Below, in pieces: positions 26,541-54,803 of a DNA stretch of 64,000 bases. Position 1 is the stretch's first letter; the number at the start of each line of letters is the position of its first letter. Source of the DNA: Candidatus Nomurabacteria bacterium (GTDB lineage Bacteria > Patescibacteriota > Minisyncoccia > Phycocordibacterales > UBA9973); NCBI GenBank assembly GCA_021413905.1, contig JAIOPO010000005.1:146957-210956 (forward strand). The letters are read 5' to 3'. Under the pieces are notes generated by a model, which worked only from the letters and a program-made list of their open reading frames with translations, was not told the origin of the DNA and searched no databases. The translations under genes and the position numbers were made by a program.

Positions 26541-27696
26541 GTTAGCGGTTACTCTCGCAGTTTTTGGTCTGCTTGTTTTTTGCGCGAGCGCGATTCCTCA
26601 CAATGCTCACGCTCAGGAACTTATGCAAGATAAGATAACGGTAGTTAGAGCGCGTGTTGATTCCGTTGTTACAAAAGTTCCCGAGGATGTGAAAGGGCTT
26701 GATGTCGCATCTCCCGATCAAACGGTGACGGCTACAATACTTGAGGGCGATCAAGCAGGGCAACAAACCACTTTTGATAATGACTACGTCCAACTGAAAA
26801 GTGGCGATACGTTTTTCCTCAATATCACTGTTCGTGCCGAAGACCAGAGTGTTTATTACAATGTCGAAGATCCTGACAGACTGCCGATACTTGGAATCTT
26901 TGCACTAATTTTTGTTCTCCTTGTGATTCTCATTGGTGGCAAGCAAGGTGTGCGCGGACTTGTCACACTGCTCGGCAGTTTCGTCCTTATTCTCTATGTT
27001 CTCGTTCCGGGCATCCTTCACGGCTATTCTCCGATTCTGATCGCCATCGGAGTATCTTCACTCATTATTATCATCGGTTCATATGTTACGCATGGATTCA
27101 ACAAGACGACATCGTGTGCAGTAGCTGGTATGATTGCCACCGTCATCGTGACAGGAATTCTTGCATACATTGCTGTACACGCAGGACGATTCACTGGATA
27201 CGGCACGGAGGAAGCCACATATCTCAGTATGAATGCGCGCGGGCATATAGACATGCTCGGACTTTTACTCGGAGGAATCATGATCGGGCTTCTCGGCGTA
27301 CTCTATGATGTCGCTATCAGCCAAGCAATAACTGTCGAGGAACTGCATCATATTGCTCCGCATATTGGGAAAGGCGTTATTTTCAAACGCTCCATGCGTG
27401 TCGGGCGCGAACATATTGGTGCACTCGTGAACACTCTTGCAATCGCATATGTCGGTGCCTCACTTCCGCTCTTACTTTTGTTCGCTACACCGCCAGTCGA
27501 TGTCATGCTCACGGTGAATCGAGAAATCTTTGCCGCAGAAATTATCCGTATTCTCATCGGTAGTATTGGACTTGTGCTTGCTGTGCCAATCGTGACGGCT
27601 CTTGCCGTAATGGTTTTGGTTAAAGTAAAAAAAGTTGATGACTCGACAAAAAGGGAGGAGTATAAGGCACTTGAGCATTATTCGCATCATCACTAG
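26527..27696 (+). CDS. YibE/F-like polytopic membrane protein with an N-terminal signal peptide.
   Basis: GTG start giving RRNKLAVTLAVFGLLVFCASAIPHNAHA, followed by more than 8 TM helices. The longer ORF that begins at 26302 overlaps zur and was rejected. Confidence 0.6.
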   Translation: MRRNKLAVTLAVFGLLVFCASAIPHNAHAQELMQDKITVVRARVDSVVTKVPEDVKGLDVASPDQTVTATILEGDQAGQQTTFDNDYVQLKSGDTFFLNITVRAEDQSVYYNVEDPDRLPILGIFALIFVLLVILIGGKQGVRGLVTLLGSFVLILYVLVPGILHGYSPILIAIGVSSLIIIIGSYVTHGFNKTTSCAVAGMIATVIVTGILAYIAVHAGRFTGYGTEEATYLSMNARGHIDMLGLLLGGIMIGLLGVLYDVAISQAITVEELHHIAPHIGKGVIFKRSMRVGREHIGALVNTLAIAYVGASLPLLLLFATPPVDVMLTVNREIFAAEIIRILIGSIGLVLAVPIVTALAVMVLVKVKKVDDSTKREEYKALEHYSHHH

Positions 27697-27706
27697 TGTT
27701 GGTAAC
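27696..27706. promoter_or_regulatory. GTGTTGGTAAC core (putative att core) overlapping the TAG stop codon of the YibE/F gene; followed by the right arm CTCGCTACACAATAA.
   Basis: cactaGTGTTGGTAACctcgctacacaataatc; the right arm is similar to those at 39200 and 58466. Confidence 0.45.
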
Positions 27707-27762
27707 CTCGCTACACAATAATCCCGATCCGAGCTAAGATGGTCGAACCTCGAAAAATGAGG

Positions 27763-27768
27763 TATAAT
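27763..27768 (+). promoter_or_regulatory. -10 box TATAAT driving leader RNA copy 1.
   Basis: gaggTATAATttg lies 20 nt upstream of the GACC 5' motif. A -10 box is positioned equivalently before copies 2 and 3. Confidence 0.5.
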
Positions 27769-27788
27769 TTGTTCACAAATTAATAGGT

Positions 27789-27943
27789 GACCTAACCCCG
27801 AAAGGCCTTGTGGCTTCTCGGATATGGTCAAAAAACCGCTACAGTATAAAAGACTCCTCGTCAGAGTCACTGTAGCGGTCGTATCCGGAAACGGGTATGG
27901 GTTTAGCCGAAAGGCTGAATCGCGATGGCGAGGAGTCTTTTAT
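27789..27943 (+). ncRNA. Structured leader RNA copy 1 of the novel motif: promoter-proximal, covarying helices, GAAA tetraloop hairpins and a terminal intrinsic terminator.
   Basis: GACCUAACCCC[ccga..ucgg]GGAUAUGGUC AAAAAA [ccgctacagt AUAAAAGACUCCUCGUCAGAGUC actgtagcgg] UCGUAUCCG-GAAA-CGGGUAUGG [agcc-GAAA-ggct] ..GGCGAGGAGUCuuuu. The 3' segment CGAGGAGUC is complementary to GACUCCUCG in the apical loop. Confidence 0.6.
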
Positions 27944-27988
27944 CAACGAGACTCTTGGTTCATTCGTAAAACAAAACCGCTACAGTGT

Positions 27989-28459
27989 ATGAATGACCTC
28001 AACAAGTTTTTTGCCACCACAAGTGGCAAGTGTGCGTTCGCAATCATTTTTTTAATAATCGGTTTCTTCGGCGGTATGCAGTACAAGGCATACCAGATCA
28101 AGAGCGTCATCACTGATTCGCTCATGCCTGCGATTACGAGCAGTTTGGATGACGCGAGAACGAAAGCGAGCGACGCGAAAATCCGTGCAATCGTTTCGTC
28201 CGCTCGGGCACAAGGCGAACTGTATTACTCGTCTGGCGGCAACGATACAACCTACAAGGGAGTTTGTTCTGATTCTGAATTTACGCATTTGATTGATGGC
28301 GCGAATAGCACGCCGACCTGTAACGAAGCCAGAGACGGTTCCGCATGGGCAGTCGCCATTCCAATGAGCGACTCATCAACCTATGCTTGTTCTGATTCCA
28401 CTGGCGCATCCATCGTCATTAATTATCCGCTCGGTTCCGCTAGTTCTTGCACGAAGTAG
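27989..28459 (+). CDS. Pilin-like or pseudopilin-like small secreted protein with an atypical N-terminus.
   Basis: Hydrophobic N-terminal helix AFAIIFLIIGFFGG, then ...SSARAQGELYYSSGGN, which resembles the N-terminal helix of Gram-positive/CPR type IV pilins. The C-terminal Cys pairs fit, but the canonical G-FTLIE prepilin site is missing. The in-frame upstream extension from 27824 overlaps the RNA and was rejected. Confidence 0.4.
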   Translation: MNDLNKFFATTSGKCAFAIIFLIIGFFGGMQYKAYQIKSVITDSLMPAITSSLDDARTKASDAKIRAIVSSARAQGELYYSSGGNDTTYKGVCSDSEFTHLIDGANSTPTCNEARDGSAWAVAIPMSDSSTYACSDSTGASIVINYPLGSASSCTK

Positions 28460-28462
28460 TAT

Positions 28463-29167
28463 ATGAAAGACATCCAACAATTTCTTTCAACTATGACGGG
28501 TAAGGTTATTGCAATCGTTCTTGTCCTTGGAGTTGGTCTGTTCATCGGATCGCGCGGGGCGACGCACAAAAACGAGCCTGTCACGGAAACACAGACACAA
28601 GTTGCGGTCGCCGATTCGACCCCGACCGCTCCTGTCGCCGTAGCCGAGACCGCGCCGATTCAGAAAACGACTGCCACTCCGAAAAAATCCGCTCCAGTCG
28701 CGCCCACTCCCGCACCAGTCATCACTCAGCCTGATCCAAAACCGGCACCATCAAAATTGCCAACGCGCATCGACGGCCTCGCAAGCATCAACCCGCTCGC
28801 CGCGCTTCAAGAAAATTGGGATACAGATATCGAGAAGGACGGTCCTGTCATAGATATCTCGTACCTCGATAGCAACGGCGACATGATTTCAAACGATGCC
28901 ACCGCCAAGATGCCCATCTCGGCGGATGTGAAGCTCTACGCCGGAAGCGATCCGCTTTCCAAGAAAACAAAACTTGTTTACTCCGGTCATTTTGATTCCA
29001 ACCAGATCGTCTACAATTTTTCTCCGAAGATTCGCATTCCCGAAGAACAAATAAACATCGATCCGAATACCGATTATGATATCGGACTTGCCACTGTCAC
29101 CATCCACACTCCCGAGCAAGGCGACTTCTCGGCAACTGATTCATTCGTAGTTCTCTACGAGAAGTAA
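28463..29167 (+). CDS. Membrane-anchored secreted protein with a Pro/Thr/Ala-rich linker.
   Basis: N-terminal TM helix, then a low-complexity linker of TPTAPVAVAETAPIQKTTATPKKSAPVAPTPAPV. Confidence 0.5.
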   Translation: MKDIQQFLSTMTGKVIAIVLVLGVGLFIGSRGATHKNEPVTETQTQVAVADSTPTAPVAVAETAPIQKTTATPKKSAPVAPTPAPVITQPDPKPAPSKLPTRIDGLASINPLAALQENWDTDIEKDGPVIDISYLDSNGDMISNDATAKMPISADVKLYAGSDPLSKKTKLVYSGHFDSNQIVYNFSPKIRIPEEQINIDPNTDYDIGLATVTIHTPEQGDFSATDSFVVLYEK

Positions 29168-29170
29168 TAT

Positions 29171-29473
29171 ATGGTCTACGCAATTCTAATTTTCGCTCTC
29201 TACTTTCTTCCGTCCATAAACGCGTACTGGAAAAAGAAACGTAATAAAAGTGCAGTGCTGACGCTCAACTTCTTTCTCGGTTGGACTGTCATCGGGTGGA
29301 TCGTTGCGCTCATTTGGTCGTCCACCAATGACGCTCCGGCGACTGTTGTCATCGAAAAGAATACGCCAGTTAAAAGTACTTCAAACGAATTGGTCGAACT
29401 TCACGCGCTCAAAGAAAAAGGTGTCATTACGCACGAGGAGTTCGAGGCTGGTAAAAAGAAAATTCTAGGGTAA
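29171..29473 (+). CDS. SHOCT-domain membrane protein.
   Basis: N-terminal TM helices plus the C-terminal LKEKGVITHEEFEAGKKKILG SHOCT motif. Confidence 0.65.
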   Translation: MVYAILIFALYFLPSINAYWKKKRNKSAVLTLNFFLGWTVIGWIVALIWSSTNDAPATVVIEKNTPVKSTSNELVELHALKEKGVITHEEFEAGKKKILG

Positions 29474-29507
29474 TATCAAGAATATCTAAAGAAAAAGTAA
29501 AGAAAAT

Positions 29508-30191
29508 ATGAAGACCAAAATCGTAGCAATCTCAATACTCATACTGTCCATATTCGGAGCAACTCCTGCACTGGCTACTTTTGGTATTCAAACTAAGACG
29601 AGCCACTGTGTTGCTGGAGCGACTCCCGACACCGCTTGTTCACCGGGTGCGGTTCTCACTACCGATGCAAATATCGTTTGCGTTTCCGGCTACACAAAGA
29701 AAGTCAGAGACGTTACGACTGCAACCAAGAAAAAGGTGTTCAAGGAATACGGACTCGCATGGAGTACTCGCTCGAATTATGAAGTCGATCACATCATCTC
29801 GCTTGAACTCGGCGGTTCAAATGACATTTCAAATCTCTTTCCAGAGTCGTACACTATATCGAACGGCGCACGCGTGAAAGACACTCTCGAAAACTATCTC
29901 CATTCCCAAGTCTGCTCTGGTGCGATCTCACTCACCGGCGCTCAAAAAGCAATCTCCGGCGATTGGACTGTTGCATACCAAAATTGGAAGAACCCGAAGT
30001 CTGCCGCGAAAACAGTGCAGACAAAATCGACCCAGACGACTATGCCATCCACCGATCCTGCCGTAAAGAAAAGTACCTCCGGTATCTGTCATGCAAGAGG
30101 TACGCGCTACTATGCTTCAACGACTCACTTCACATCCTACACCACCGTCCAAGCTTGCCTAGACAGCAGAGGACGGCTACCATTGAACTAG
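29508..30191 (+). CDS. Secreted HNH endonuclease-domain protein.
   Basis: Signal peptide MKTKIVAISILILSIFGATPALA; the HNH motif is YEVDHIISLELGGSNDISNLFPE. Confidence 0.55.
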   Translation: MKTKIVAISILILSIFGATPALATFGIQTKTSHCVAGATPDTACSPGAVLTTDANIVCVSGYTKKVRDVTTATKKKVFKEYGLAWSTRSNYEVDHIISLELGGSNDISNLFPESYTISNGARVKDTLENYLHSQVCSGAISLTGAQKAISGDWTVAYQNWKNPKSAAKTVQTKSTQTTMPSTDPAVKKSTSGICHARGTRYYASTTHFTSYTTVQACLDSRGRLPLN

Positions 30192-30193
30192 AC

Positions 30194-30739
30194 ATGTCCA
30201 CTTTCACTATCCCATTTCCTGAATACGACATCGCAGAAATTCTACAAAAAGAATTCTCGAAGAAAGAGAATTTTTCCGTTGCCATTCCACTGTCCCGTCA
30301 GCAGAAATTCTACGATCTGCTTCTTGTAAACGGAGCGACAAAGAAATCCGTCACCATCCAAGTCAAAAGCTCACGCACCTACCTCGGCTCTCCAAAGAAC
30401 GAGTACCAGTATTACTCATGGCTCAATTATTTCGATATCAAAGACAATTACAGCGACTTCTACTTCGTCTACATGACGTATCCTCAGCTCGACAAGGACT
30501 TCACGCCCCGCGCGAAGTGGGAGCGCATGATCCTCGTATTCAACCAGAAAGAAATGGTTGAACTGCTCAGTAACGTAAAAACCAAAGCCGGAAAGCAGGA
30601 ACGCTTTTTCTCTTTCGGATTGAACGTGACCGACGGCAAGATTTATGGAGCACGCGGATTCGGACATCTCGACAAGAAGGAATTCTCAAAAAATCTGCTC
30701 GCGAACAAAATCGGAGAAATTCGAAAGAAGCTCAGCTAG
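30194..30739 (+). CDS. Hypothetical protein of 181 aa.
   Basis: ORF starting at the ATG right after the upstream stop. The longer ORF in the track, starting at 29963, overlaps the previous gene. Confidence 0.4.
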   Translation: MSTFTIPFPEYDIAEILQKEFSKKENFSVAIPLSRQQKFYDLLLVNGATKKSVTIQVKSSRTYLGSPKNEYQYYSWLNYFDIKDNYSDFYFVYMTYPQLDKDFTPRAKWERMILVFNQKEMVELLSNVKTKAGKQERFFSFGLNVTDGKIYGARGFGHLDKKEFSKNLLANKIGEIRKKLS

Positions 30740-32194
30740 TTAACCAAACAACAACCCCGGCTTCTTGCCGTATTTTTCAATAATCTGAATCATGGAGATG
30801 GAGAAAGCGTCCACGAGGTCGTCATGGTTCTCCTTGCCGAAGCCGACAAGTTCGTCAATGAGTTCACCGCAACCCTCATTGTAAAAGAAAACCTGCTTTT
30901 TCTTGATCGGCACCGCCGCGATTCGCAGACGCGACGCCTTGTCGGTGACACTCGGCACGCCAATGATGTCGTGGCTCTCCTGCATAAGCTGGACGATGGC
31001 TTCTTGCATGCCGTTGTTTTCCATGAATACTTTGACGGGTACTTTGTTTACCTGCTCCGCGGCAATGGAGTTTTTTAGATGTTCGAGAAGTTCCTTTACT
31101 CCGACTTTCGTATGGAACGGATATGGCTGAACGTACACGCGGAGGTTGTCGCCTCGGTTGTAAACATAGAGAACAACAAAGGCCGGAAAGTCAGCACTCT
31201 CTTTTTGCGAGATGGCGAGGTCTACGCCGATACAGATGCGATCCGGCTTTCCTTTTGGAAGCTCATCGTAGTACTGGATGTCATCAAGCGTTACAATCTG
31301 TTCCTCGCTCGCGACAATCTTCAGCATGTACTCACGCAACCATGCGATTTCATCCATCGTCTTTTCATGCTCGGCTTCAATCGACTCCGGCGTTGGATAT
31401 TTACTCGGCCATAACGGAACGCCTTTCGCATCGACGATTGGGTATTCGCGAAAAACAGGGTTCATACTTTTCAGTTCGCCCCGCTCAATTTTCTTTTCGA
31501 GCCGTCTGAGCACGGAGTCCTCGTGAAGCAAGTTACCGACGGCTATAATACGAGTCTTTTTCGTACCGGCAGGTATTACGTCTCCTGTCAGCCAGTTGAA
31601 CGTCTTGTTACGACCCTCTCTCGTTCGCACCGAATCCAAGTCCTCGATGTCGTCAAGGATGATGAGGTCGGGGCGGTGTTGGTTGTGCCTTGCACCGCGA
31701 ATACTTTGTTCGGTCGAACAGATCATGATCTTCACATTCAGTTTCTTTATGATTATCGCCGTCGCGTTGCCGAGACTGTTCCGCTCTTCCTCAAATGGTC
31801 CTAAGTCTTTTTTCAGAAGCTCGTTGTGCAAAAGTTGCTCCTTTATATTCGACAAGTGTTGTCGGGCTTTCTGCTCGGTCTGACCGCACAAGACAATGAA
31901 CTTTTTCTGCTGTACGCCGAGTATCGACCACAGAACATATGCCGTCGAGACGAGCGTGGATTTTGCCGAGCCACGGAACGCAACAATGACGGCAAGCTTG
32001 ATCTTGTCGTCTTCAAGAATACGGAACATCTCCTCGTGAAAAGGCGCAGTCTCATACTCCATGTATTGAGACATGTATATCGGGAAGAAGAACTCGAAGC
32101 TGTTGCGGACGACTTCCTTGCGGAAGCGTTGATCCTTGAGTATCTTGCCGAAGATGTCGTCCGAGCTATTCTCTTTTTTGCGTTTTTTTGACAT
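30740..32194 (-). CDS. Phage terminase large subunit-like protein (TerL), module A.
   Basis: Walker A AFRGSAKST and Walker B LIILDDIE. The C-terminal RNaseH-like nuclease Asp residues are present at ICIGVDLAISQ and HDDLVDAF. It is paralogous to 40449-42047. Confidence 0.65.
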   Translation of the reverse strand: MSKKRKKENSSDDIFGKILKDQRFRKEVVRNSFEFFFPIYMSQYMEYETAPFHEEMFRILEDDKIKLAVIVAFRGSAKSTLVSTAYVLWSILGVQQKKFIVLCGQTEQKARQHLSNIKEQLLHNELLKKDLGPFEEERNSLGNATAIIIKKLNVKIMICSTEQSIRGARHNQHRPDLIILDDIEDLDSVRTREGRNKTFNWLTGDVIPAGTKKTRIIAVGNLLHEDSVLRRLEKKIERGELKSMNPVFREYPIVDAKGVPLWPSKYPTPESIEAEHEKTMDEIAWLREYMLKIVASEEQIVTLDDIQYYDELPKGKPDRICIGVDLAISQKESADFPAFVVLYVYNRGDNLRVYVQPYPFHTKVGVKELLEHLKNSIAAEQVNKVPVKVFMENNGMQEAIVQLMQESHDIIGVPSVTDKASRLRIAAVPIKKKQVFFYNEGCGELIDELVGFGKENHDDLVDAFSISMIQIIEKYGKKPGLLFG

Positions 32195-32591
32195 GGTTTC
32201 TAATCGACGAGAGCTTCAACGCCGCCTTTATTTGCTTCCGTTCCTCCTTAGTGAGTGCTTCTTCCTCCGCAAGTCCTTTCACTTCGAGCGTGTCGCCGTA
32301 GCGATCGCTGTGCGTCTTCAGATACAAAGCAATAGCCTTAAACTCCTTGTCGCCGATGAGCGAGAAGAGCTGGGTTTCCGCGATGTCGCACATGAAATTG
32401 CGGCCTTCTTCAAGCGCGGCATCCATCGCTTTCTCGAAGGACTTCTTCTCCTTGACCCATCGGTAAATGGTCGCGCGGGAGAGCTTCACCTTTTGGCACG
32501 CCTGCTCTATCACCGGCGTGCGTTTCAGTTGCTCGATGAACGCCTCCTTGAGCGCATCCTGCCGAGCTTTAATTGAATCTTTCCTACTCAT
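32166..32591 (-). CDS. Small HTH protein, putative terminase small subunit, module A.
   Basis: HTH KLSRATIYRWVKE; it overlaps the TerL start and is paralogous to 42028-42423. Confidence 0.45.
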   Translation of the reverse strand: MSRKDSIKARQDALKEAFIEQLKRTPVIEQACQKVKLSRATIYRWVKEKKSFEKAMDAALEEGRNFMCDIAETQLFSLIGDKEFKAIALYLKTHSDRYGDTLEVKGLAEEEALTKEERKQIKAALKLSSIRNHVKKTQKRE

Positions 32592-33348
32592 ATATTTTTT
32601 CGACTTTTAGCTTGGTAAGTTTTTCCCATCGGTCGATGATGGTCTGGCAGTACTCGGTGTCCATCTCGACTCCGATACAGATGCGCTTCGTCTGCTCGCA
32701 GGCAAGGAGCGTCGTGCCACTTCCGAGGAAGCCATCGAACACGACATCGCCGATGCGCGTGCTGTTGAGTACGAGTTGGCGTATTAATCCAATTGGCTTC
32801 GTCGATGGATGCCAAGGACTGCGGTTCGGTCGCGGATGCACGATGACGCTCTTGTCTTTCGATTTGAGAAATTCGTGCGTGCCGTACCATCCGTAGGCGA
32901 TCAGTTCGTGTTGCGGTGCGTAGTCCATGCGACCGATGACGGCATGCGTTTTGACCCAGATGAGCAGTTGCGTGAACTTCATTCCGGCGGCAAGCATGCC
33001 GTTACGAAGCGCGAATATCATCTTGTCGCAGTTGAAGATGTAGAAGGCGTTCTTGCGTTCGAGATGCGGTCGAATTGCTTCGATCCAGTCACGAGAGAAT
33101 GCCTCATATTCGGCATCACTCTGCAAATGATCATTCGCGATTGTCTTGTCTTTGAGCAAAGGCTTGAGAGCTTTCTTACTTTCAGTCAGATTCACACCGT
33201 ATGGCGGATCTGTAATCACTGCCTTGATCTTCCTGTTAGCGACGAGTCTCGCGACCATGTCCTTGTTTCGGGAGTCCGCACAGAGAAGTAAGTGATTTCC
33301 GAGGCGAAAGGTATCGCCGTATTTAATTGAGTTTTGTGATTGGGTCAT
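32584..33348 (-). CDS. DNA methyltransferase (N6-adenine / N4-cytosine, beta class).
   Basis: Motif IV VITDPPYG precedes motif I DGFLGSGTT. It is paralogous to 62235-62984. Confidence 0.85.
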   Translation of the reverse strand: MTQSQNSIKYGDTFRLGNHLLLCADSRNKDMVARLVANRKIKAVITDPPYGVNLTESKKALKPLLKDKTIANDHLQSDAEYEAFSRDWIEAIRPHLERKNAFYIFNCDKMIFALRNGMLAAGMKFTQLLIWVKTHAVIGRMDYAPQHELIAYGWYGTHEFLKSKDKSVIVHPRPNRSPWHPSTKPIGLIRQLVLNSTRIGDVVFDGFLGSGTTLLACEQTKRICIGVEMDTEYCQTIIDRWEKLTKLKVEKIYE

Positions 33349-34648
33349 TGGATATTTTCTTAAATCTGTTAATGATTACTTGGCAGAACACGGGATCCCA
33401 CTCGCAGACGTACGCCGTGCGATTGAGCTGTTCGCATGCCGACAGCATGCTTCCCGAACCGGCCGTCATGTCGAGAACGATGTCGCCGGGCTTTGTACAC
33501 CTACGCAAAATTTTCTCGTGAATTGAGGGCGATTTTTGGGTCGGGTGTTCCATCTCACTTCCGGCCATACGCTTGACCATCCAGATATTGAGCAAGTCGA
33601 GGATGTCTTCGATGAGACGGTTGCCGGTACTGACTTCTTTGTTCTGAACCTCGTTGTAGTTCTTGACCTTGTCCGAGAGGTATGGACGACCCATCGTGCC
33701 GTAGACGACGAATTCTGTTACTTTGTTGAAAGCGTTTTTAGGCGTGGGCGAGGCGTTGTCCTTAATCCAAATACAGAGACGCTTCGAGTCAATCTTCAAT
33801 TCCTTGAACACTGTCTGAAAGAGCCAGACGTAGCGTTCGTCGCACCACCATGCCTGATGGCAGTCCGGCTTTGAGACGGCGAGCGCGTTCTGCATGATGA
33901 CCTGCACGAATGCGCGGTACGCATCGTCCGTCATATTGTCTTTGGTTTTGCCGCCATACCCACCGTTCTTTTTGCCGACACCTTTGTCGTAACTGAGATC
34001 AATGTTGTAAGGTAAATCCGTATCGACGAGGTCTGCTCTCGCGTCTCCCATTAATATCTTTGCCGTCTCGGGGAGCGTTGCATCCCCACAGATTAATTTG
34101 TGGCGACCGAGTTGGAATATATCGCCCATCTGTATCTCCGTCTCTTTCGCTTTCTCGACTTCATCCTCCTCGTTGAAGTTTTCGTTTGCTTCGACTTCGA
34201 GGTTGTCGTCGAAGATGTTACTCAAATCCATTGAGTCGAATCCGGCATTCAAGAGTTCGCCGAGATCGAAGTCTCGGGCGAGAGCCTCCCAGTCCCAAGA
34301 AGCCCCCGACCTATTTGACGTAAGTAGGTAGTCTTTGAACTCTGCCTCTGTTAATTTACGATTCGGTACGCGCACTTCAATTTCTTCCTCGCCTCTGCCA
34401 AGCAGGGAGAGCGCGAGGACGCGCTGATTACCGGCGACGAGCGTGCCGTCCGTGTTGATACATGGCAGTTCTGCGACGTTGAATTTTTTGAGACTGCGCT
34501 TGAGTCCTTCGAGTTGAACGGAGGAAAGCGTACGCGGATTTTTTGAATATGGTACGAGCGAATCCACTTTTCGCTTTTCTGTGTGCCATTCTAATTTTTG
34601 TTGAGACATAGGCTGTTTACTTTTGTTTCTTATTAATAAAGAAGACAA
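33323..34648 (-). CDS. ParB-like nuclease N-terminal domain fused to a DNA methyltransferase.
   Basis: ParB/Srx-like VPYSKNPRTLS...GNQRVLAL. The MTase motifs are TDLPYN and LDMTAGSGSM. It is paralogous to 42410-43690 and 62971-63999. Confidence 0.8.
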   Translation of the reverse strand: MSSLLIRNKSKQPMSQQKLEWHTEKRKVDSLVPYSKNPRTLSSVQLEGLKRSLKKFNVAELPCINTDGTLVAGNQRVLALSLLGRGEEEIEVRVPNRKLTEAEFKDYLLTSNRSGASWDWEALARDFDLGELLNAGFDSMDLSNIFDDNLEVEANENFNEEDEVEKAKETEIQMGDIFQLGRHKLICGDATLPETAKILMGDARADLVDTDLPYNIDLSYDKGVGKKNGGYGGKTKDNMTDDAYRAFVQVIMQNALAVSKPDCHQAWWCDERYVWLFQTVFKELKIDSKRLCIWIKDNASPTPKNAFNKVTEFVVYGTMGRPYLSDKVKNYNEVQNKEVSTGNRLIEDILDLLNIWMVKRMAGSEMEHPTQKSPSIHEKILRRCTKPGDIVLDMTAGSGSMLSACEQLNRTAYVCEWDPVFCQVIINRFKKISNDPITKLN

Positions 34649-45793: not shown

Positions 45794-45795
45794 AT

Positions 45796-46269: not shown

Positions 46270-46270
46270 G

Positions 46271-47062: not shown

Positions 47063-47110
47063 AATTTTTATTTCCTGTGAAAATTAGTACACTTTTGATA
47101 CAATAAACAA

Positions 47111-47614: not shown

Positions 47615-47629
47615 TAGAAATCTATAGCA

Positions 47630-48610
47630 ATGCCGGACATAAAGAAAAACTTAATGTTGCTAACTGGTGCAGGGTTCACACGAAATTTTGGTGGGTTTTT
47701 AGCACGTGAGATGTGGTCAAAAATATTTAATAATCCAATTGTACAAGCAAGCGCAGAAGCACGAGGATTACTTTTGAATGATTTTGACTTTGAGTCTGTC
47801 TACTCGGCTAAAATGAGCCATGGAGAAGAAACAATAAAGATTATAAGAGAGGCTGTCGAAATGGCATATAAGGATCTTGATGATACAGTAAAAAATTGGG
47901 TTTTTAATCATGGCAATCCAACGGCACTTAATACATACGGGTTAGGTGAGCTTCTTAGTTTTATATCAAGTAGAGGTTCAGATAAAGGATGGTTCTTTAC
48001 CCTCAATCAAGATTTATTTATGGAACGAAAACATAATTACAGATCACCAGGAGCAATGTTTAGTCAGCCTTTTATTGAAGGAGATAATGGTAAAATTGGA
48101 ATTATAACTTTACCCAATGAAAACGGTGTAGAAAAAGTTAAAAATACTTTAAATAATGCAAGTTATATAAAACTACATGGATCATATGGCTGGATTTCAT
48201 CACACGGTGGCAATCAGATGGTAATTGGTAAAAACAAAGTAAATGATATTGATCAAGAACCATTATTAAAATGGTATTTTGAGATTTTTCAAAATCTAAT
48301 TAAAGAAGGTAATAAAAAATTATTAATCATTGGCTATGGGTTTGCCGATAATCATATAAACGACATTCTGCTTAACGGAATACAGGAGCATGGTCTTAGT
48401 TTGTATATAATAAGCACAACTGATCCAGAAACATTTAAAAATAGACTTGAGGGAAAACCGTCACATTTAGGCAGTTGGGAGGTTTCTAAATATTCAAAAA
48501 TATGGGATGGTGTTAAAGGATATTTTCCTTATTCATTAAGAGATATATACCCTCCAGACCAAAGTATTACTACCATATCACTAGAAATTAAAAAGGCTTT
48601 GGAAAGTTAA
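47630..48610 (+). CDS. SIR2_2-family (SIR2-like) protein; putative NADase effector.
   Basis: LLTGAGFTRNFGG, FFTLNQDLFMER, KLHGSYGW and LLIIGYGFADNHI motifs. Confidence 0.55.
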   Translation: MPDIKKNLMLLTGAGFTRNFGGFLAREMWSKIFNNPIVQASAEARGLLLNDFDFESVYSAKMSHGEETIKIIREAVEMAYKDLDDTVKNWVFNHGNPTALNTYGLGELLSFISSRGSDKGWFFTLNQDLFMERKHNYRSPGAMFSQPFIEGDNGKIGIITLPNENGVEKVKNTLNNASYIKLHGSYGWISSHGGNQMVIGKNKVNDIDQEPLLKWYFEIFQNLIKEGNKKLLIIGYGFADNHINDILLNGIQEHGLSLYIISTTDPETFKNRLEGKPSHLGSWEVSKYSKIWDGVKGYFPYSLRDIYPPDQSITTISLEIKKALES

Positions 48611-48673
48611 GTTACAGCTAACTGTAACATTTAAAGTCCAACTTGTGTCACTTTTGTAACTTTTTGAGATGCT

Positions 48674-48763
48674 CGAGACGCGTCGTTATGGTATGATAAA
48701 AAAAGTCTCAAAAGCCTTACAGGTCTTGTTTGCGAAAGGTTCTAACACGAGACCGCCCGCATT
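48674..48763 (+). pseudogene. Degenerate tRNA-Ser-like sequence (pseudo-tRNA) followed by a copy of the tRNA-Ser trailer block.
   Basis: It aligns end to end with tRNA-Ser 15950-16036 (GACGCGTCG.., ..GTCTCAAAAG.., ..ACAGG.., ..GGTTCTAACAC.., ..CCGCCCGCA), but the acceptor ends do not pair. Confidence 0.4.
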
Positions 48764-48832
48764 GACAACCTGTTAGTTTTGATGACCCATTTAGTTATGT
48801 ACTAAGTGCGACCCACAAACCTACATGTTGCA

Positions 48833-48866
48833 GAAAAAAGAACGACAATTGCCGTTCTTTTTTCTT
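48833..48866. terminator. Bidirectional intrinsic terminator.
   Basis: aaaaaAGAACGacaattgCCGTTCTtttttc. Confidence 0.55.
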
Positions 48867-49254
48867 AACTGAAATCTATTTCAAAATTATACATTCCCAT
48901 ACCACAAGTTCCCCTGAGTGGCTCACCAGCTTTAGGTATGCCGATATCAATTATTTCTTCTGCTGATTGAGAGAGAATTTTTTGATAATTAATTGATTTA
49001 ATAACCAAAGAAGCTGAACAGTCGTATGTACCGCTTGTTTTTACAATTAATTTTGTAGGAATACCTGCTTTAGCATTACTTAGTTGTGGAGAATACCCAC
49101 CCTTAGCATCAATTGTTATGTATTGTATCCCGTCTTTTATCTCGGTATTTTGAATTATTTTACTAGAGTCTTTTGTTGTTGATCCACCTGTTAAAACAAT
49201 ACCTATGGCAACAATAAGACCTAGTGTAATGATTATTGAAACTGTTTTGTTCAT
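48865..49254 (-). CDS. Membrane-anchored cupredoxin-like small protein.
   Basis: N-terminal TM and a C-terminal ...TCGMGMYNFEIDF cupredoxin-like end. Confidence 0.4.
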   Translation of the reverse strand: MNKTVSIIITLGLIVAIGIVLTGGSTTKDSSKIIQNTEIKDGIQYITIDAKGGYSPQLSNAKAGIPTKLIVKTSGTYDCSASLVIKSINYQKILSQSAEEIIDIGIPKAGEPLRGTCGMGMYNFEIDFS

Positions 49255-49272
49255 AAAGTAATTATATCAAAA

Positions 49273-50280
49273 TTAAATATTAAATAATGGATTTATAACA
49301 CCAAGACCTGCCAGCCCTGCGAGTAAAGCAAATATACCAAGACCTACAACAACAACTCCCGCAGATTTAAAGAATAAGGGTGCATGTTTACCATGCGCAA
49401 AAGATGCCGATCCAAAAGATAGAATTGAAAGCACTGGTAATGTTCCAAGAGCAAATGTAAACATAATCAATAATCCAGACATAAAAGATCCACTTGAAAT
49501 AGCTGCTACTTGCATAGCCTGTGTAAATCCACATGGTAAGAAGAATGTGGCAAATCCTATAATAAGAGGAGTTAAAGTTTTATGTTCAACCTTTCTAAAG
49601 AAATTAAAAACACCTGAAGGTAAGGTAACATTACTCTTTTTAAAAACTCCTACTAAATTTAAGCCAAGTAGTAGCATAACGATTGAAGCCACAATACCTA
49701 GTATTGCTGAGAATGTGAAACTTATACCAATAGCATTACCTATAAGTCCTAAAACTCCACCCAAAAGAGCAAAGCTGACTAATCTACCAGTATGAAAAAG
49801 TATGAAAGTTTTAGTATCGCTTATATTATCTTCAGAGATTTTCGCAGAAAGAGATAATACTAGACCACCGACAATCGCAAGACAACTTGAAACAGATGCA
49901 ATAAGACCAACGATAAAACTTGTCATTGGAGTAGTCTTACCTCCAATACCTAAATTGAGAATTCCTGATTTTTGTAATATGAAAAATAAGACAAGAAAAA
50001 CTAAACCAATAGGTATAGCTTTCCAAATAACATCATCTTCTTTATTTTTATTAAGTTTTTTTTCAACCGACAAAGAGTATCCATTGGGTTTAATTTTATC
50101 TGCAAGAATGGTTGCGATTTCGTCTATGTTCTGTTCAGTATTCATTTCAACATCTACGGTCTCATTTTTTAGATTTACATTTGATTTAACAACAAAAGAC
50201 TGCTCATTCAAAATATCTTCTATCAAGATTTTACATGATGCGCAGTGTGTTCCAGTTACATAAAATTTGTAATTTTTCAT
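49273..50280 (-). CDS. Heavy-metal-associated (HMA) domain fused to a DsbD/CcdA-like polytopic membrane region.
   Basis: N-terminal GTHCASCKILIE HMA motif; the remainder has 6-8 TM helices. Confidence 0.55.
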   Translation of the reverse strand: MKNYKFYVTGTHCASCKILIEDILNEQSFVVKSNVNLKNETVDVEMNTEQNIDEIATILADKIKPNGYSLSVEKKLNKNKEDDVIWKAIPIGLVFLVLFFILQKSGILNLGIGGKTTPMTSFIVGLIASVSSCLAIVGGLVLSLSAKISEDNISDTKTFILFHTGRLVSFALLGGVLGLIGNAIGISFTFSAILGIVASIVMLLLGLNLVGVFKKSNVTLPSGVFNFFRKVEHKTLTPLIIGFATFFLPCGFTQAMQVAAISSGSFMSGLLIMFTFALGTLPVLSILSFGSASFAHGKHAPLFFKSAGVVVVGLGIFALLAGLAGLGVINPLFNI

Positions 50281-50303
50281 TGTTTTATAAGTTAATATTT
50301 ATT

Positions 50304-50774
50304 TTAATCATAATTGAGCACTATCTTGTCTCCATCTTTCATATAATAATTCCCAAAATCCAATTTATCTACACCATTTACTGTCATCCTTATATTTGAA
50401 CCGAAAGAGTTTATATCCTTATTCCAAATTTTGAAAAACTCACTGAGTTTAGTATCTCTACCTCGAACTACTGATGAAAACTCCAAATGGATAACTCCTA
50501 ACTGTGAATCTTCGTCGTGAGTGTGAATTGGATTATGAACCGCACCAAGTCCAATATTTGCGGGGATTTCTACTTTTTCTCCTTTTATATATATAGAAAG
50601 CTCAGGATGCCAGTGAATTCCGTTTCGAGAAATTATTTCTGATTCATAAGGATTTTCCACACTACTAGATGAGGGTTTGTCTGAATATACGAAATAAACA
50701 AAAACCCCAATGACTAAAATGGCTAGTATCCATATCCAGATATTTTTATTATTTTTCTTGTGCTTATTTTTCAT
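50304..50774 (-). CDS. Membrane-anchored His-rich hypothetical protein.
   Basis: TM anchor, then HWHPE...HNPIHTHDED, which are possible metal ligands. Confidence 0.4.
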   Translation of the reverse strand: MKNKHKKNNKNIWIWILAILVIGVFVYFVYSDKPSSSSVENPYESEIISRNGIHWHPELSIYIKGEKVEIPANIGLGAVHNPIHTHDEDSQLGVIHLEFSSVVRGRDTKLSEFFKIWNKDINSFGSNIRMTVNGVDKLDFGNYYMKDGDKIVLNYD

Positions 50775-50776
50775 AA

Positions 50777-53095
50777 TTATAATCTCTTACTTTTAATTCT
50801 CAGTGAGTTCGACACAACTGACACTGATGACATCGCCATCGCAAATCCTGCAAATACTGGATTAAGCAACCAGCCAAAAATTGGGTAAAAAACTCCAGCC
50901 GCAAGAGGGATTCCTACAATATTGTAAATGAATGCCCAAAAAAGGTTTTGTTTAATTCCTCGCATTGTTATTTTTGATAACCTTATTGCTTTTACAATTT
51001 TTGAAATATCTCCACCCAGGAGTGTAATTCCTGCTGACTCAATGGCAACATCAGTACCTGTACCCATGGCGATACCGACATCGGCTTGAGCTAGTGCAGG
51101 AGCGTCATTTACTCCATCACCCGCCATAGCAACAACATGTCCTTGGGATTGAAGTTCTTGTATTTTTAATAACTTATCTTGAGGTAAAACATGAGCAACA
51201 ACTTCATCGACTCCAACAAGAGATGCGATGTGTTTCGCCGCTTTTTCATCATCGCCTGTAAGCATCACTACTTTAATTCCAAGTTTATGAAGAGCATTAA
51301 TAGCTTCTTTTGATTCAGGTTTTATTTCATCTGCAACCATTACAAAACCAAGAACTTTTTCTTTTGTAGATATAATGACAGGAGTTTTTCCTTGGGATGT
51401 AAACTCTTCTAGCAATGTTTGATCAAAAGAAAGATTTAAATCTTTAATAAGCTTTATATTACCAACAAAATATTCAACCTGCTTAACAGACCCTTTTAGA
51501 CCTTTTCCTTGAATTCCTTCAAAGTTTGAAACTTCTTGTATGGGGATATTCTTCTCTTTTGCATAGTTCACAATTGCGTGTGCGATTGGATGTTCAGATT
51601 TTTTCTCTAGTGTTGCAAGTATTCCTATCAAATCTTCATTACTCATATCTGAGCTATTTTGGATATCAACAAGTGTCGGTTTCCCAATTGTTATCGTTCC
51701 TGTTTTATCCATCATGACAGTATCAACTTTGTGTAATTTCTCTAGCGTAGCCGCATCTTTAATCAGTATTCCTTCCTTTGCTCCTTTACCAACCCCTACA
51801 ATGATTGCAGTCGGGGTAGCAAGTCCAAGTGCACATGGGCATGCAATAACTAATATCCCGACAAAGGATACAAGTCCAAATGAAAGAGCTTGTGAAAATC
51901 CAAGTGAGCCAGTTCCAAACGCCAACCATACCCCCAAAGTCACAAAAGCTAAGATAAGAACTATCGGTACAAAAACGCTTGAAATCTTATCAGCTAATGC
52001 CTGAATAGGGGCTTTACTCCCTTGGGCTTCTTCAACCATGTGTATAATTTGAGCCAGCAATGTTTCTGATCCAACTTTTGTGGCTTTAAAAACAAACGAT
52101 CCACTTGTATTAATTGTTCCTGCGACCACACTATCTCCAATCTTTTTCTGTACTGGCATTGGCTCTCCTGTTACCATTGATTCATCAACAAAAGATGATC
52201 CCTCAGTAATGACTCCGTCTACTGGAATCTTTGTTCCTGGTTTAACAATAATTAAGTCTCCATGCTTAACCTCATTTATAGAAATCTCTACTTCCTTACC
52301 TTCACGCACAACCAAGGCTGTTTTTGCTTGAAGATTTAAAAGTTTTTCTATCGCATCTCCTGTTTTAATTTTTGAACGAGCTTCTAAATATTTACCAAGA
52401 GCGATAAAAGTAATCACTACAATGGTCACATCGTAGTAAGTATGATCTACATTTATAAAAGGTCTGAGTACTTCTTCAAATGCACTGACAGCAAAACTAT
52501 ATAAAAAAGCGGCAACAGTACCGATACCGATAAGTGTATCCATATTAGCTTTGCCATATCTTAAGAAACGATAAAACCCCAGAAGATATGGTTTCCCTAC
52601 AACAAATAGAGTATAGGTCGCAAAAATAGGTAATAGATGGTGAAAAAATTCTTTGAGTGTATAGCTCATCATAGGGACAATACTGTACTGAGCAAGAATA
52701 TCCCAAGTCATGACGAAAACACTAAAGATGGCTAGTGGAATAGCTGACATGACTTTAGATTTCATATCCTTTATCTCTTCAATCTTTTCCTTTTTTGACT
52801 GATTTAATCCTAAATGTTCAGCATGTTCGTTTTCACTCATACCCATAGAACTCGCAGGCATGCTTTCCGTACTATGATCCATAGGTGCTATCAAAGAATA
52901 CCCAAGCGGTTCCAATTTCTTATTAAAAGATTCAGCGTTAGTTTTTGAACTATCAAAAACAATCTTTGCGTTCTCGGTACCATTGTTTACTGAAATATCT
53001 TCCACTCCATCGATTTTTTTTACTGTTCTTTCAATAATACTTGCACACGAAGCACAATGCATACCTTTAATTTTGTATATCTTTGGAGTATTCAT
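50777..53095 (-). CDS. copA: Copper-translocating P1B-type ATPase.
   Basis: HMA motif [12 protein letters not shown]; transmembrane CPC motif; DKTGTIT phosphorylation site; [10 protein letters not shown]. Confidence 0.9.
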
Positions 53096-53098
53096 AAA

Positions 53099-53362
53099 TT
53101 ATTTTCGCTTAAGCTGATAAACTTTTAAAATTTCCTTAGTAGCAACATCGACTTTGCCACTTTTAATTTGACCAACAACACAATGACCAAGGTGGCTCTC
53201 AAGGAGAATATCCTCAATACTTGAAAGACCTTGTTTTACAGCAGAGGTCTGGGTAATGACATCGATACAGTACTTTTCCTCTTCAATCATTTTTTGGATA
53301 CCTCGAACTTGTCCTTCTATTTTTTTGAGCCTTGTTATGAGTTTTTGTTTATCTTTATGCAT
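53099..53362 (-). CDS. csoR: CsoR/RcnR-family copper-sensing repressor. Revised start at MHKDKQ.
   Basis: ...RLKKIEGQVRGIQKMIEEEKYCIDVITQTSAV...HLGHC. The track ORF extends to 53404 but would include the operator palindrome. Confidence 0.8.
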   Translation of the reverse strand: MHKDKQKLITRLKKIEGQVRGIQKMIEEEKYCIDVITQTSAVKQGLSSIEDILLESHLGHCVVGQIKSGKVDVATKEILKVYQLKRK

Positions 53363-53400
53363 AATGCTATTATACCCCCTAGGGGGTATAATAGCAAGTT
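53363..53400 (-). promoter_or_regulatory. csoR-copA promoter with the perfect 20-bp palindrome TATACCCCCTAGGGGGTATA, a CsoR-type operator, lying between a -35 TTGCTA and a -10 TATAAT.
   Basis: The minus-strand read is TTGCTAttaTACCCCCTAGGGGGTATAATagcattATG. The spacer is 17 nt, and the operator matches the ATACCC...GGGTAT CsoR-box style. Confidence 0.55.
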
Positions 53401-53408
53401 TCAAAATG

Positions 53409-54737
53409 TCAGTCTACTAGAGTAATCTTCTTCTCTTTCAGTATCAATCTACTCCTCAAATGTCCCATTAATTCACGCTTCTCAAGTGGTGTACCTTCTC
53501 TCAGCACATACTTGGCATACTCTCTTGTGTTCACATCATCTTCATTGATGTTGTATTTCGGAGTGCCTTTAGTTGCCAACCTCTGCAGTCTGTTAAATCG
53601 CTTGATCTCTTCTTCAAGTTTGATTCGCATACCCAGTTCGTTGATGCTTACCTTATCGATTACTTTGAACAGCTCCTCGATCAATTCTTCTTCTCGTATA
53701 TATTTATTTTTACAATTCCTATCTCTCGCCTTGGAACATGAGTAGTACACATACTTGGCAGTCGTGCCATCTTTGAGTTCCTTATACTTCTCCTGTGCCG
53801 TTATTCCTGACTCGCACATTCCGCAGGTAAATAATTTGGTAAATGCAAACTCTCGATTTTCTCTCACAATCCTATCTCGCTTCAGTTGCTCCTGTGCTTT
53901 TTCAAATAGCTCTTGAGTAATGATCGGCGTATGGCTTCCTTGGTACCAGTTATCGCTATTTCGTGGATACTCGAATGGTCCATAGTAGATCGGCATATTG
54001 AAGATACGATAAACCCCTGAGAGTGTCAGGGGCTTATTTCCTCGGGTATAGAAATTTAGATCAAATCTGAGCCAGTTGTATACTTTTCTTCCACTCCATT
54101 TTTCGTATACCACTTTCTCAAACATTTTCTTGATAATCGGCGCTCGTTCTGGATCAATCACTATTTGGCACTTTCTGTCCATTAGTTTTTGATTCAGGTA
54201 TCCAAGCGGTGCCATTCCAGGCCATAACCCCATCTCCACTCTCGTTCGCAATCCTCGCTTCACATTGATACCTCGATTGTCATTTTCAAGTTTTGCTTGG
54301 CTTCCTAATATCATCAGGAGGAACTTCTCATTTGGATTATTTCCGAATGTCTGCCCAAAAGTTCGTATCATATGCAGTTTTCCTGAATCCATCAGGTCTA
54401 CGATTTTTCCCAAGTCTCCTGCGTTTCTTGAAATTCTATCTGGTGCCCAAGTCAGTATTGCATTGAACTTCTCTTGTTTGAGTTCCTCGATAATTTCATT
54501 GAAGACTGGTCGTTGTCCTGTCTCCTTTGCACTATGGCTCTCACGCTTCATGGTGACCACTTCAAGCCCCTCGCGGTCTGCCAGTTGGAGCATCTCGCTG
54601 ATTTGGCTATCTATGGAAAGCACTTGTCGTTCCTCAGATTCTGTTGATTTTCTTGCGTATAAGCAGTATTTAATCTTCTTTGGTTCAACCTCTGGTTTCT
54701 TTACGCCTTGCTCTTGGTTTGGGTTTTCTATCTTCAC
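53409..54737 (-). CDS. Large serine recombinase, integrase type, copy R3; its stop is 4 nt from the csoR ORF.
   Basis: KYCLYARKSTESEERQVLSIDSQISEMLQLADREGLEVV. It is near-identical to R1 over long stretches and has a zinc ribbon CGMCESG...C. Confidence 0.85.
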   Translation of the reverse strand: MKIENPNQEQGVKKPEVEPKKIKYCLYARKSTESEERQVLSIDSQISEMLQLADREGLEVVTMKRESHSAKETGQRPVFNEIIEELKQEKFNAILTWAPDRISRNAGDLGKIVDLMDSGKLHMIRTFGQTFGNNPNEKFLLMILGSQAKLENDNRGINVKRGLRTRVEMGLWPGMAPLGYLNQKLMDRKCQIVIDPERAPIIKKMFEKVVYEKWSGRKVYNWLRFDLNFYTRGNKPLTLSGVYRIFNMPIYYGPFEYPRNSDNWYQGSHTPIITQELFEKAQEQLKRDRIVRENREFAFTKLFTCGMCESGITAQEKYKELKDGTTAKYVYYSCSKARDRNCKNKYIREEELIEELFKVIDKVSINELGMRIKLEEEIKRFNRLQRLATKGTPKYNINEDDVNTREYAKYVLREGTPLEKRELMGHLRSRLILKEKKITLVD

Positions 54738-54792
54738 AACTACATTGATGACGCAAATCGTCCTAGGAGTCTAGAGCGTCCCACCGCCATAG

Positions 54793-54803
54793 TGTTGGTA
54801 ACT
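54793..54803. promoter_or_regulatory. GTGTTGGTAAC core upstream of R3; the left arm is shared with the R1 site.
   Basis: tgaTGACGCAAatcgtcctaggagtctAGAGCGTCCCaccgccataGTGTTGGTAACtaaaacgcc. Confidence 0.45.

Follow-up and report, generated by a model that had tools for sequence, protein, structure and literature searches.

What does a phage-type DNA-packaging motor do on DNA that carries no genes for a capsid? The question is raised by a 64,000-nt stretch of a Candidatus Nomurabacteria genome (contig JAIOPO010000005.1, positions 146,957 to 210,956), hereafter the window, in which terminase genes lie beside DNA methyltransferases and large serine recombinases. The original prediction, made from the letters of the window alone, read it as a tandem array of satellite-like or prophage-remnant elements without capsid genes. 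Terminase, methylases and serine recombinase are indeed present and capsid genes absent, but the proposed anatomy was wrong and one of the three proposed modules, module C, has no terminase. The window holds three related mobile islands (E1, E2 and E3), set head to tail at the 3′ end of one tRNA-Ser gene of this member of the candidate phyla radiation (CPR, or Patescibacteria). They share a conserved operon and have no virion structural genes; the best reading, in our judgement about as likely as not, is that they are helper-dependent, satellite-like islands.

A terminase-methylase operon without structural genes

Modules A (30740-34648) and B (40449-43690) are, as had been claimed, genuine operons of a large terminase subunit (TerL; phrog_38, E 1e-80 and 2e-77), a protein resembling the small subunit (TerS) and a fusion of a ParB N-terminal domain with a DNA methyltransferase (ParB-MTase; PF01555). 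The genes overlap by 8–29 nt, in operon-like fashion, and a second methyltransferase (MTase) is present in module A and missing from module B. That the modules might be a single assembly duplication was dispelled by pairwise alignment, which gave 38–44% amino acid (aa) identity between A and B and no nucleotide similarity. The phrog_38 matches cover nearly the full length of both TerL proteins, in the PDB the family TerL profile finds solved chains of terminase large subunits (8dgc, 'Terminase, large subunit', and 4bij, 'DNA maturase B'), and invariant in the family alignment are Walker A K76, the Walker B/catalytic residues D178, D179 and E181, and the acidic nuclease residues D325, D460, D461 and D464. 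The TerS-like helix-turn-helix (HTH) proteins fit in position and size, with Pfam matches below the cut-off and generic HTH families scoring similarly; they could also act as excisionases.

Module C, in E3, has only its two methylases in common with modules A and B (39–48% identity). The 499-aa protein in the TerL position, which had been called a terminase, has no significant Pfam or PHROG match (weak ones to unannotated families, E>0.002), no PADLOC or PDB match, no visible P-loop and no BLAST similarity to A or B, and hhalign gave it a probability of 0.1% against the TerL profile. The 124-aa open reading frame (ORF) in the TerS position likewise gave no TerS match in Pfam or PHROG and no BLAST similarity to A or B. 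These profile, BLAST and hhalign negatives ruled out module C as a divergent terminase; the terminase of E3 is lost or replaced.

To place the operon we assembled 80 GTDB loci (one genome per species, of 574 TerL-profile candidates) and 42 IMG/VR loci. All of these loci carry the module, and the 80 from GTDB have a TerL at least 38% identical to TerL_B; the titles of the latter name mostly Patescibacteria lineages, and several are complete chromosomes. Some loci (L020, L021, L023, L030-L033 and others) come from metagenome-assembled genomes labelled Gammaproteobacteria, Bdellovibrionales or Omnitrophota, which may be mislabelled bins or indicate a wider range of hosts. ParB-MTase, (MTase), TerS and TerL are contiguous in 73/80 GTDB and 37/42 IMG/VR loci. 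Where the contig leaves room, TerL is followed on its own strand by a large serine recombinase in 51/63 GTDB and 28/37 IMG/VR loci (79 in total), at a distance of at most 150 nt in 36 loci, 0.15–3 kb in 29 and more in 14. Some 120 loci keep the operon intact and syntenic; TerL is broken only in L117 and L128. In six IMG/VR loci (L112, L118-L120, L122, L132) two TerL paralogues stand in tandem after TerS and before the recombinase.

In Pfam and PHROG scans no ORF of the region matched a capsid, portal, protease or tail family, in agreement with the predicted lack of capsid and tail genes, and a peptidoglycan (PG)-binding protein of E2 gave weak endolysin-domain matches only. Among the related loci, clustering of 1464 neighbouring ORFs gave no other family in more than 19 of 80, and when 139 flanking ORFs of 57 loci were compared with PHROGs, no family had more than three matches and the 25 most frequent families included none for portal, capsid or protease. 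In the positive control, an IMG/VR locus (L135) with a TerL 31% identical, genes for portal, protease, major head, adaptor and tail come after TerL; among GenBank phages, TerL identity does not exceed 28%. Literature on LOOT RNA, on CPR terminases with recombinases and on satellites with TerL and a serine recombinase yielded no description of such an island family. We are highly confident in describing it as one defined by a ParB-MTase-(MTase)-TerS-TerL-serine recombinase operon of CPR elements, associated with tRNA-Ser and tRNA-Gln.

Three islands at one tRNA-Ser 3′ end

The units of the array are recombinase R1 with module A, R2 with module B, and R3 (with a Cu operon) with module C (Table 1). 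GC content is 0.32 over 1-16 kb of the window, 0.47 from 16.04 to 36.2 kb and 0.34–0.37 in the remainder, E1 having 0.469 against 0.319 in the flank. Junctions J1 and J2 coincide with the GC steps, the first (0.32 to 0.47) exactly at 16.04 kb and the second (0.47 to 0.34) exactly at 36.2 kb. All three junctions follow one design, in which the 3′ end of tRNA-Ser, intact or decayed, precedes TTGACA..., the degenerate copies being those at J2 and J3. A CCGCC direct repeat is present at both ends of E1 (16032-36 and 36211-15). E2 begins with TTGACAGGTAGCACGAGATG, similar to the TTGACAGATAGCACGAGACG that comes after tRNA-Gln in L006, and finishes in a degenerate tRNA 3′ end. The right ends of E1 and E3 (window-equivalent 65640-65738) are homologous over ~100 nt, that of E3 (~65.74 kb) being seen in L168, a close relative of the source genome with 99% identity where the two overlap.

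The Logan contigs of run SRR15633504 match the window at 100% identity, and these independent contigs of the same sample break at 36211-36240: they end at 36240 and begin at 36211, and the 30 nt (k-1) by which they overlap start exactly with the CCGCC that also stands at the tRNA end. Contig SRR15633504_95446 (20,234 bp) agrees in its fetched part with window positions 20740-36240 without a difference, and its span of 16007-36240 was deduced from its size. We infer that the break at 36.2 kb is what a co-existing E1-free allele, tRNA-Ser...CCGCC-A-TTGACAGG, would produce, and from the contig ends the E1-empty site is predicted to read tRNA-Ser...CTCCGCC-A-TTGACAGG; looking for an empty site via the flank protein RuvX returned only a short contig of the same sample. 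A further Logan break, at 53394, was ruled out as an element boundary, as it coincides with a perfect 32-nt palindrome (53365-53396, core TATACCCCCTAGGGGGTATA). This palindrome stands just upstream of the start of the CsoR gene and is presumably the CsoR operator.

E3-type elements are also found elsewhere. The leftmost E3 gene encodes a cupredoxin protein that is found, identical, in at least 22 contigs, and in L171, L173 and L174 the identical E3 end adjoins three different genuine tRNA-Ser genes. Because L171 and L174 show the E3 end, tRNA-Ser and then the RuvX flank (RuvX and tRNA-binding protein genes, as on the left of the array in the window), an E3-type element sits there at tRNA-Ser without E1 or E2; the Cu operon and R3-type recombinase are directly at the tRNA gene, and module B and the LexA/Pycsar block are missing.

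The three recombinases each score above the cut-off for PF00239 (Resolvase), PF07508 (Recombinase) and PF13408 (Zn_ribbon_recom), with 89% aa identity between R1 and R3 and 61% of R2 to both. Element ends track this kinship: R1 and R3 have both ends in common, and R2 has its left end in common with L006. The 18-mer TTGACAACCTGTTAGTTT that starts E1 and E3 has 47 exact matches in metagenome contigs, 33 directly after intact tRNA-Ser genes of five anticodons, four after decayed tRNA ends, which are tandem junctions, and about ten that are chance matches; in contigs with enough flank, R1/R3-like recombinases lie 0.7–10 kb inside this end. A tRNA census of the 44 family loci with at least 3 kb past the recombinase found a tRNA gene beyond it in 22, in every one with the 3′ end toward the recombinase (Ser in 11, Gln in nine, then Asn and Glu), and far-side direct repeats of the tRNA end bound elements of 13–17 kb in L006, L056, L061 and L068. 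On this correlative evidence, the recombinases would catalyse attP × attB recombination of attachment (att) sites at the observed ends.

The left end of the E1/E3 type (16037-16141 and 48762-48865; L182-L227) has ~75 conserved nt directly past tRNA-Ser, with two GACCC boxes around a hairpin in which compensatory variants (ATTTAGT/ACTAAGT, GCTCG/CGAGC, ACTGCC/GGCAGT) were read by eye, a 5′ TTGACAACCTGT segment able to pair with ACAGGTTGTAA, and a terminator next. RNAalifold returned a trivial hairpin only for the 75-nt motif, the variable hairpins being in different registers, and there was no Rfam match; possible readings of the motif are a co-transcribed small RNA and a structured att arm. 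A GCGACCCACAAAGCTA-like box recurs in direct orientation at both ends of E1/E3-type elements (36124-36140, 48806-48822, 16080-16096 and window-equivalent 65645 in L168) and resembles accessory sites of the arm type, an unusual feature for serine recombinases. In L183 (JACCDG011548363.1) the ParB-MTase/TerS/TerL block is opposite in orientation to an R3-type recombinase, which suggests an inversion or a head-to-head second element.

Both sides of the array hold further features. Directly past the E3 right end, L168 encodes a fourth large serine recombinase (window-equivalent 65692-67242; 516 aa, ~35% identical to R1-R3). An HTH protein and a PsbP-like protein come next, and a few kb further the housekeeping genes (patatin, TruB) begin again; the recombinase may mark a small fourth element without a terminase operon. 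On the other side, window positions 1-16 kb contain five tRNAs and a minus-strand ORF of >2514 aa that runs off the left window end (1-7560), has internal repeats (families D7, D10, D14) and is probably a giant surface protein. A 73-nt repeat (13850-13922 and 14829-14901; 81% identical ungapped, ~90% over 67 nt by BLAST) precedes two adjacent minus-strand genes, for a 198-aa VTT-domain protein and RuvX, and resembles a shared promoter or leader.

Table 1. Features of the island array, in window coordinates
Feature	Position	Strand	Evidence and remarks
LOOT RNA, copy outside the array	12834-12975	-	precedes 468-aa non-secreted protein
tRNA-Ser(TGA)	15950..16036	+	ARAGORN and Rfam; integration target of whole array; element end directly after last base
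J1	16036/16037		CACCGCCTCCGCC|TTGACAACCTGTTAGTTT
E1	16037..36217		20.2 kb, GC 0.47; left-end motif, 1360-aa NTPase, R1, cargo slot, LOOT2, small membrane/secreted proteins, module A, Mrr-ZnF nuclease, tRNA-like right end
E1 conserved left end	16037..16141	+	TTGACAACCTGTTAGTTT..hairpin..GCGACCC..terminator; same type at 48762-48865
R1, large serine recombinase (E1)	20650..22080	-	real start probably near 21981
Core decamer, recombinase-proximal (E1)	22051..22060	+
Cargo between E1 cores	22061..27696		three unknown ORFs, ZnuA/ZnuC/ZnuB, Zur/Fur, YibE/F; Pfam; exact decamers at both sides
Core decamer, LOOT-proximal (E1)	27697..27706	+	then 'right arm' and LOOT promoter
LOOT RNA copy 2 (E1)	27789..27921	+	RF03000, 75.2 bits
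TerL_A	30740..32194	-	phrog_38, E 1.3e-80; 38% identical to TerL_B
TerS_A, HTH protein in TerS position	32166..32591	-	29-nt overlap with TerL; TerS PHROGs E 8e-7; Pfam Sf6_terminase 5.6e-4
N6/N4 DNA methyltransferase A	32584..33348	-	PF01555, 1.4e-29
ParB-N + N6/N4 methyltransferase fusion A	33323..34648	-	PF01555 1.2e-23; ParB PHROGs 2e-21
E1 right end	36120..36217	+	tRNA-like pseudo 3′ end (GGGTACCGTACCCACGTACACCGCCA) after a GCGACCCACAAAGCTA box
J2	36217/36218		GGTACCGT..CACCGCCA|TTGACAGGTAGCACGAG
E2	36218..48761		12.5 kb, GC 0.34; HNH_5, 143-aa ORF, R2, uninterrupted core, LOOT3, PG-binding secreted protein, module B, S24 LexA-like repressor, two PycC and PycTM, DUF2726, SIR2 (Pfam, PADLOC)
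R2, large serine recombinase (E2)	37815..39134	-
Twin core units	39181..39199	+	TTGGCAACG-TGTTGGTAAC, uninterrupted state, 56 nt upstream of R2 start
LOOT RNA copy 3 (E2)	39286..39411	+	75.8 bits
PG-binding protein (E2)	39462-40427
TerL_B	40449..42047	-	phrog_38 2e-77; Terminase_6N above cut-off
TerS_B (HTH, TerS-like)	42028..42423	-	phrog_4044, 1.2e-12
ParB-N + methyltransferase fusion B	42410..43690	-	PF01555 1e-25; ParB_N 3.7e-4
S24 (LexA/CI-like) repressor	44119..44754	+	PF00717 1.4e-27; divergent from module B operon
PycC	44975-45793		PADLOC, 9.8e-66
PycTM	45796-46269		PADLOC, 1.2e-25
PycC	46271-47062		PADLOC, 6.4e-56
J3	48761/48762		GGTTCTAACACGAGACCGCCCGCA|TTGACAACCTGTTAGTTT
E3	48762..64000, on to ~65.74 kb outside window		left-end motif, Cu operon, R3, cargo slot (839 + 355 aa), LOOT4, two small ORFs, 499-aa and 124-aa non-terminase ORFs, MTase C, ParB-MTase C
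R3, large serine recombinase (E3)	53409..54737	-
Core decamer, recombinase-proximal (E3)	54793..54802	+
Variable cargo slot (E3)	54803..58454	+	839-aa and 355-aa unknown proteins
Core decamer, LOOT-proximal (E3)	58455..58464	+
LOOT RNA copy 4 (E3)	58547..58668	+	82.1 bits
499-aa protein in TerL position of module C	60157..61656	-	not a terminase
124-aa ORF in TerS position of module C	61857-62231
N6/N4 methyltransferase C	62235..62984	-	48% identical to A
ParB-MTase C	62971..64000	-	cut by window end; 423 aa in L168

Cargo slot, LOOT RNA and cargo genes

Cargo is carried at three positions, one of which is a slot by the recombinase that is marked by GTTACCAACA repeats and also holds LOOT RNA and a small-protein gene. 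The decamer TGTTGGTAAC occurs exactly five times in the window, always in direct orientation (the copy within the twin unit starts at 39190), and the longer core-plus-arm pattern gave 0 matches in shuffles, so that the core noticed by the original prediction is real; it is an internal cargo slot next to the recombinase and not an element boundary. Its copies are adjacent in E2, 5.6 kb apart in E1 and 3.65 kb apart in E3, and two tandem 10–11-mers of the form GTTRCCAACA lie upstream of many family recombinase genes. Near-identical copies of R3 and the Cu operon occur in other samples (L171, L174-L176), where the DNA past the decamer differs; the alternative genes there encode an SMC-like protein, a DUF4011 helicase, or an AAA_21 system with trypsin-like proteins. 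Restriction-modification (RM)-like genes are found in the TerL-recombinase gap of other loci. Cargo may be exchanged site-specifically at twin GTTACCAACA-type decamers.

The leader RNA that had been postulated next to the core proved to be LOOT RNA (RF03000), of which the four window copies score 75.2–82.1 bits over model positions 1-121, against a gathering score of 46.4; L003, L004 and L006 also match. With a covariance model built from six copies, 42 LOOT RNAs were found in 88 related loci, 26 of them between TerL and the recombinase, on the opposite strand and before a small gene, and four more just past the recombinase. The small genes behind LOOT often encode secreted or membrane proteins, and two recurrent families have DUF4352 or tRNA_anti-like domains. 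LOOT is filed in Rfam as a small RNA (sRNA) and has, to our knowledge, no assigned function.

Most of the cargo had been named correctly, including the Pycsar cyclases with PycTM, SIR2, the S24 LexA-like protein, the Cu operon and the Mrr-ZnF nuclease. An S24 family protein is found in the same position in 18/80 related loci. E2 has a compact multi-system defence block at 44975-47062, in which two different Pycsar cyclases surround one PycTM, with a DUF2726 nuclease-like protein and SIR2 after them.

Proposed packaging by a helper and competing explanations

The mechanism that we favour, tentatively and at somewhat less than an even chance, is packaging of the satellite type. The serine recombinase would integrate and excise the island at the tRNA 3′ end, excised E1 being closed right end to left end by a circular junction GTACACCGCC-TTGACAACCTG. 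In E2 and about a quarter of its relatives, the S24 LexA/CI-like repressor would hold the operon off until DNA damage or phage infection. On induction, the island's TerS and TerL would recognise and cut island DNA, which would be pumped by a headful mechanism into procapsids of a co-resident helper phage; the methylases would modify this DNA for survival of restriction in the next host, and the cargo (Pycsar, SIR2, nucleases, RM-like systems, Cu and Zn homeostasis) would pay the island's way. A bolder version, to which we give somewhat lower odds than to the mechanism itself, takes the islands for a new, 'terminase-only' class of phage satellites, dominant in the mobilome of the CPR and packaged into unrelated helper capsids, with LOOT as a regulatory RNA and the GTTACCAACA repeats as a slot serviced by the recombinase. 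The sole functions conserved in such satellites would be integration, methylation and their own complete terminase, and neighbouring islands would perhaps be packaged by headful run-on; a more radical version would have the terminase motor used without any capsid.

Several results weigh against packaging by a helper. The circular forms anticipated in metagenome assemblies did not appear, with no circular or terminally redundant contig among ~160 loci, a metagenome scan for the predicted excised junction (GTACACCGCM-N0-3-TGACAACCTGTTAG) gave 0 matches, and no candidate helper phage was identified. The TerL clade of the modules lacks a close true-phage relative (at most 31% identity), and docking on a foreign portal is thus hypothetical. 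No primase, helicase or Rep replication family was detected by Pfam or PHROG in E1-E3 or their recurrent neighbours, unlike in phage-inducible chromosomal islands (PICIs), P4 and PICI-like elements (PLEs). E3 has no detectable terminase, yet E3-type ends, with recombinase and Cu operon, occur in several genomic backgrounds, so that spread may not need a terminase. Ser-targeting and Gln-targeting elements are not set apart in the recombinase tree, which leaves the link between recombinase and target correlative. Finally, the placement of E1 is burdened by a GC content (0.47) far from that of the host and by tRNA and junction sequences that are short shared nodes of the assembly graph.

The main rival is that the terminase-methylase operon does not serve capsid transfer at all, being instead a defence or addiction module, or a means of DNA processing for natural transformation or vesicles, with the recombinase alone providing mobility. 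We consider this unlikely, at about half the weight of the satellite-like reading, and it stays alive because E3 has no terminase while E3-type ends are found at several different tRNA-Ser genes. One or two methylases coupled with a nuclease-ATPase would follow an RM-like logic, in which the methylases could protect self DNA and the TerL nuclease/ATPase and HTH protein could attack unmodified or invading DNA; the islands are dense in defence genes, and neither a helper phage nor a packaged form was seen. Such a role is harder to reconcile with the order ParB-MTase, TerS, TerL, which is the packaging-module order of real phages (L135), with the preservation in both TerL domains of all catalytic residues of a packaging motor, and with an S24 repressor facing the operon, as is typical of inducible phage-like elements. 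In addition, we know of no defence system that uses TerS and TerL.

It is improbable that E1 is misplaced, that is, derived from a higher-GC organism of the same sample and threaded into the contig via short tRNA or junction sequences. Its GC of 0.47 stands out from the 0.32–0.37 around it, and the Logan contig ends imply that the tRNA-Ser gene is a separate 88-nt node and 36211-36240 a shared 30-nt node. However, the Logan contig of E1 extends 24 nt into the left end of E2 and, by its size, begins 30 nt inside the tRNA gene, its fetched part being 100% identical to the window, and a recently acquired island retains the GC of its donor.

That the elements are autonomous viruses of small size, with capsid proteins that have diverged beyond recognition, is very improbable. 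Unannotated ORFs do remain (839, 355, 499, 265 and 205 aa in E3, small ones in E1), but nearly every gene of E2 could be assigned a non-structural function, no unannotated family is common to the loci of the family, and PHROGs readily detects the portal and capsid genes by the nearest true-phage TerL (L135).

The anatomy of the original prediction, in which TGTTGGTAAC cores bound the elements (27.7-39.2 and 39.2-54.8 kb) and R2 belongs to module A and R3 to module B, is hardly credible. It drew on five exact direct cores and on R-P-core-X ... Y-core-P′-LOOT patterns that resemble the products of attP × attB recombination. The GC shift at 36.2 kb falls inside its first element, the Logan contigs break there and not at 39.2 kb, and the segments that it requires to be chromosomal have GC of 0.43–0.47 and 0.37–0.40 against 0.32 in the true flank. 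GC, Logan breaks and tRNA ends instead place the junctions at J1, J2 and J3. The pairing fails likewise: the GC of R1 (53%) fits module A (~50%) and that of R2 (32%) module B (33–36%), related loci have the recombinase downstream of TerL on the same strand, at most 150 nt past it in 36, and L171 and L174 have an R3-type recombinase and Cu operon at tRNA-Ser without module B.

Equally hard to credit are decaying prophage remnants that kept their packaging genes, as also suggested originally: TerL, the TerS-like protein and ParB-MTase are of phage origin, but the four- to five-gene operon, with a recombinase in the place of the portal, is intact across many CPR lineages with invariant catalytic residues and two broken TerL genes only, and its variable flanks hold no residual structural genes.

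Among known systems, PICIs, including the Staphylococcus aureus pathogenicity islands (SaPIs), and phage-inducible chromosomal minimalist islands (PICMIs) are likewise site-specific islands of 10–20 kb without virion genes, with repressor control, defence cargo, tandem or hot-spot occurrence and their own small terminase subunit to redirect packaging. The CPR islands differ in adding their own TerL, in using a large serine recombinase in place of a tyrosine integrase, in lacking a primase/replication module and capsid-size remodelling genes, and in always having ParB-methylase fusions; for them, helper dependence is a prediction. Capsid-forming PICIs (cf-PICIs) also encode TerS and TerL and package only their own DNA, but have in addition portal, major capsid, protease and head-tail connector genes, none of which was found in the CPR islands. 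The PLEs of Vibrio cholerae are satellites of ~18 kb with a large serine recombinase that parasitise helper phage capsids; they differ in having a replication initiator, no terminase and no tRNA targeting, and show no sequence relation to the CPR islands. The packaging modules of tailed phages such as L135 have the same order of ParB(-MTase), TerS and TerL, with TerL in the same phrog_38, but there portal, protease and major capsid genes come after TerL, whereas the CPR islands have the recombinase, or LOOT and a small gene and then the recombinase. tRNA-integrated islands and tycheposon-like elements resemble the family in integration at tRNA 3′ ends, tandem accretion and variable defence and metal cargo, but lack the terminase-methylase-serine recombinase operon that defines it.

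The family provides a genomic context for LOOT RNA and many natural pairs of serine recombinase and att site with tRNA targets, of the kind used as genome-engineering tools. If helper packaging is true, the satellite concept would come to include elements with a complete terminase of their own and no capsid components. CPR bacteria make up a large share of bacterial diversity, and little is known of how genes move between them; if these islands are a main vehicle, their recognisable operon, present in at least 120 loci with hundreds more candidates, would offer a handle on the spread of defence systems and metal resistance through the CPR.

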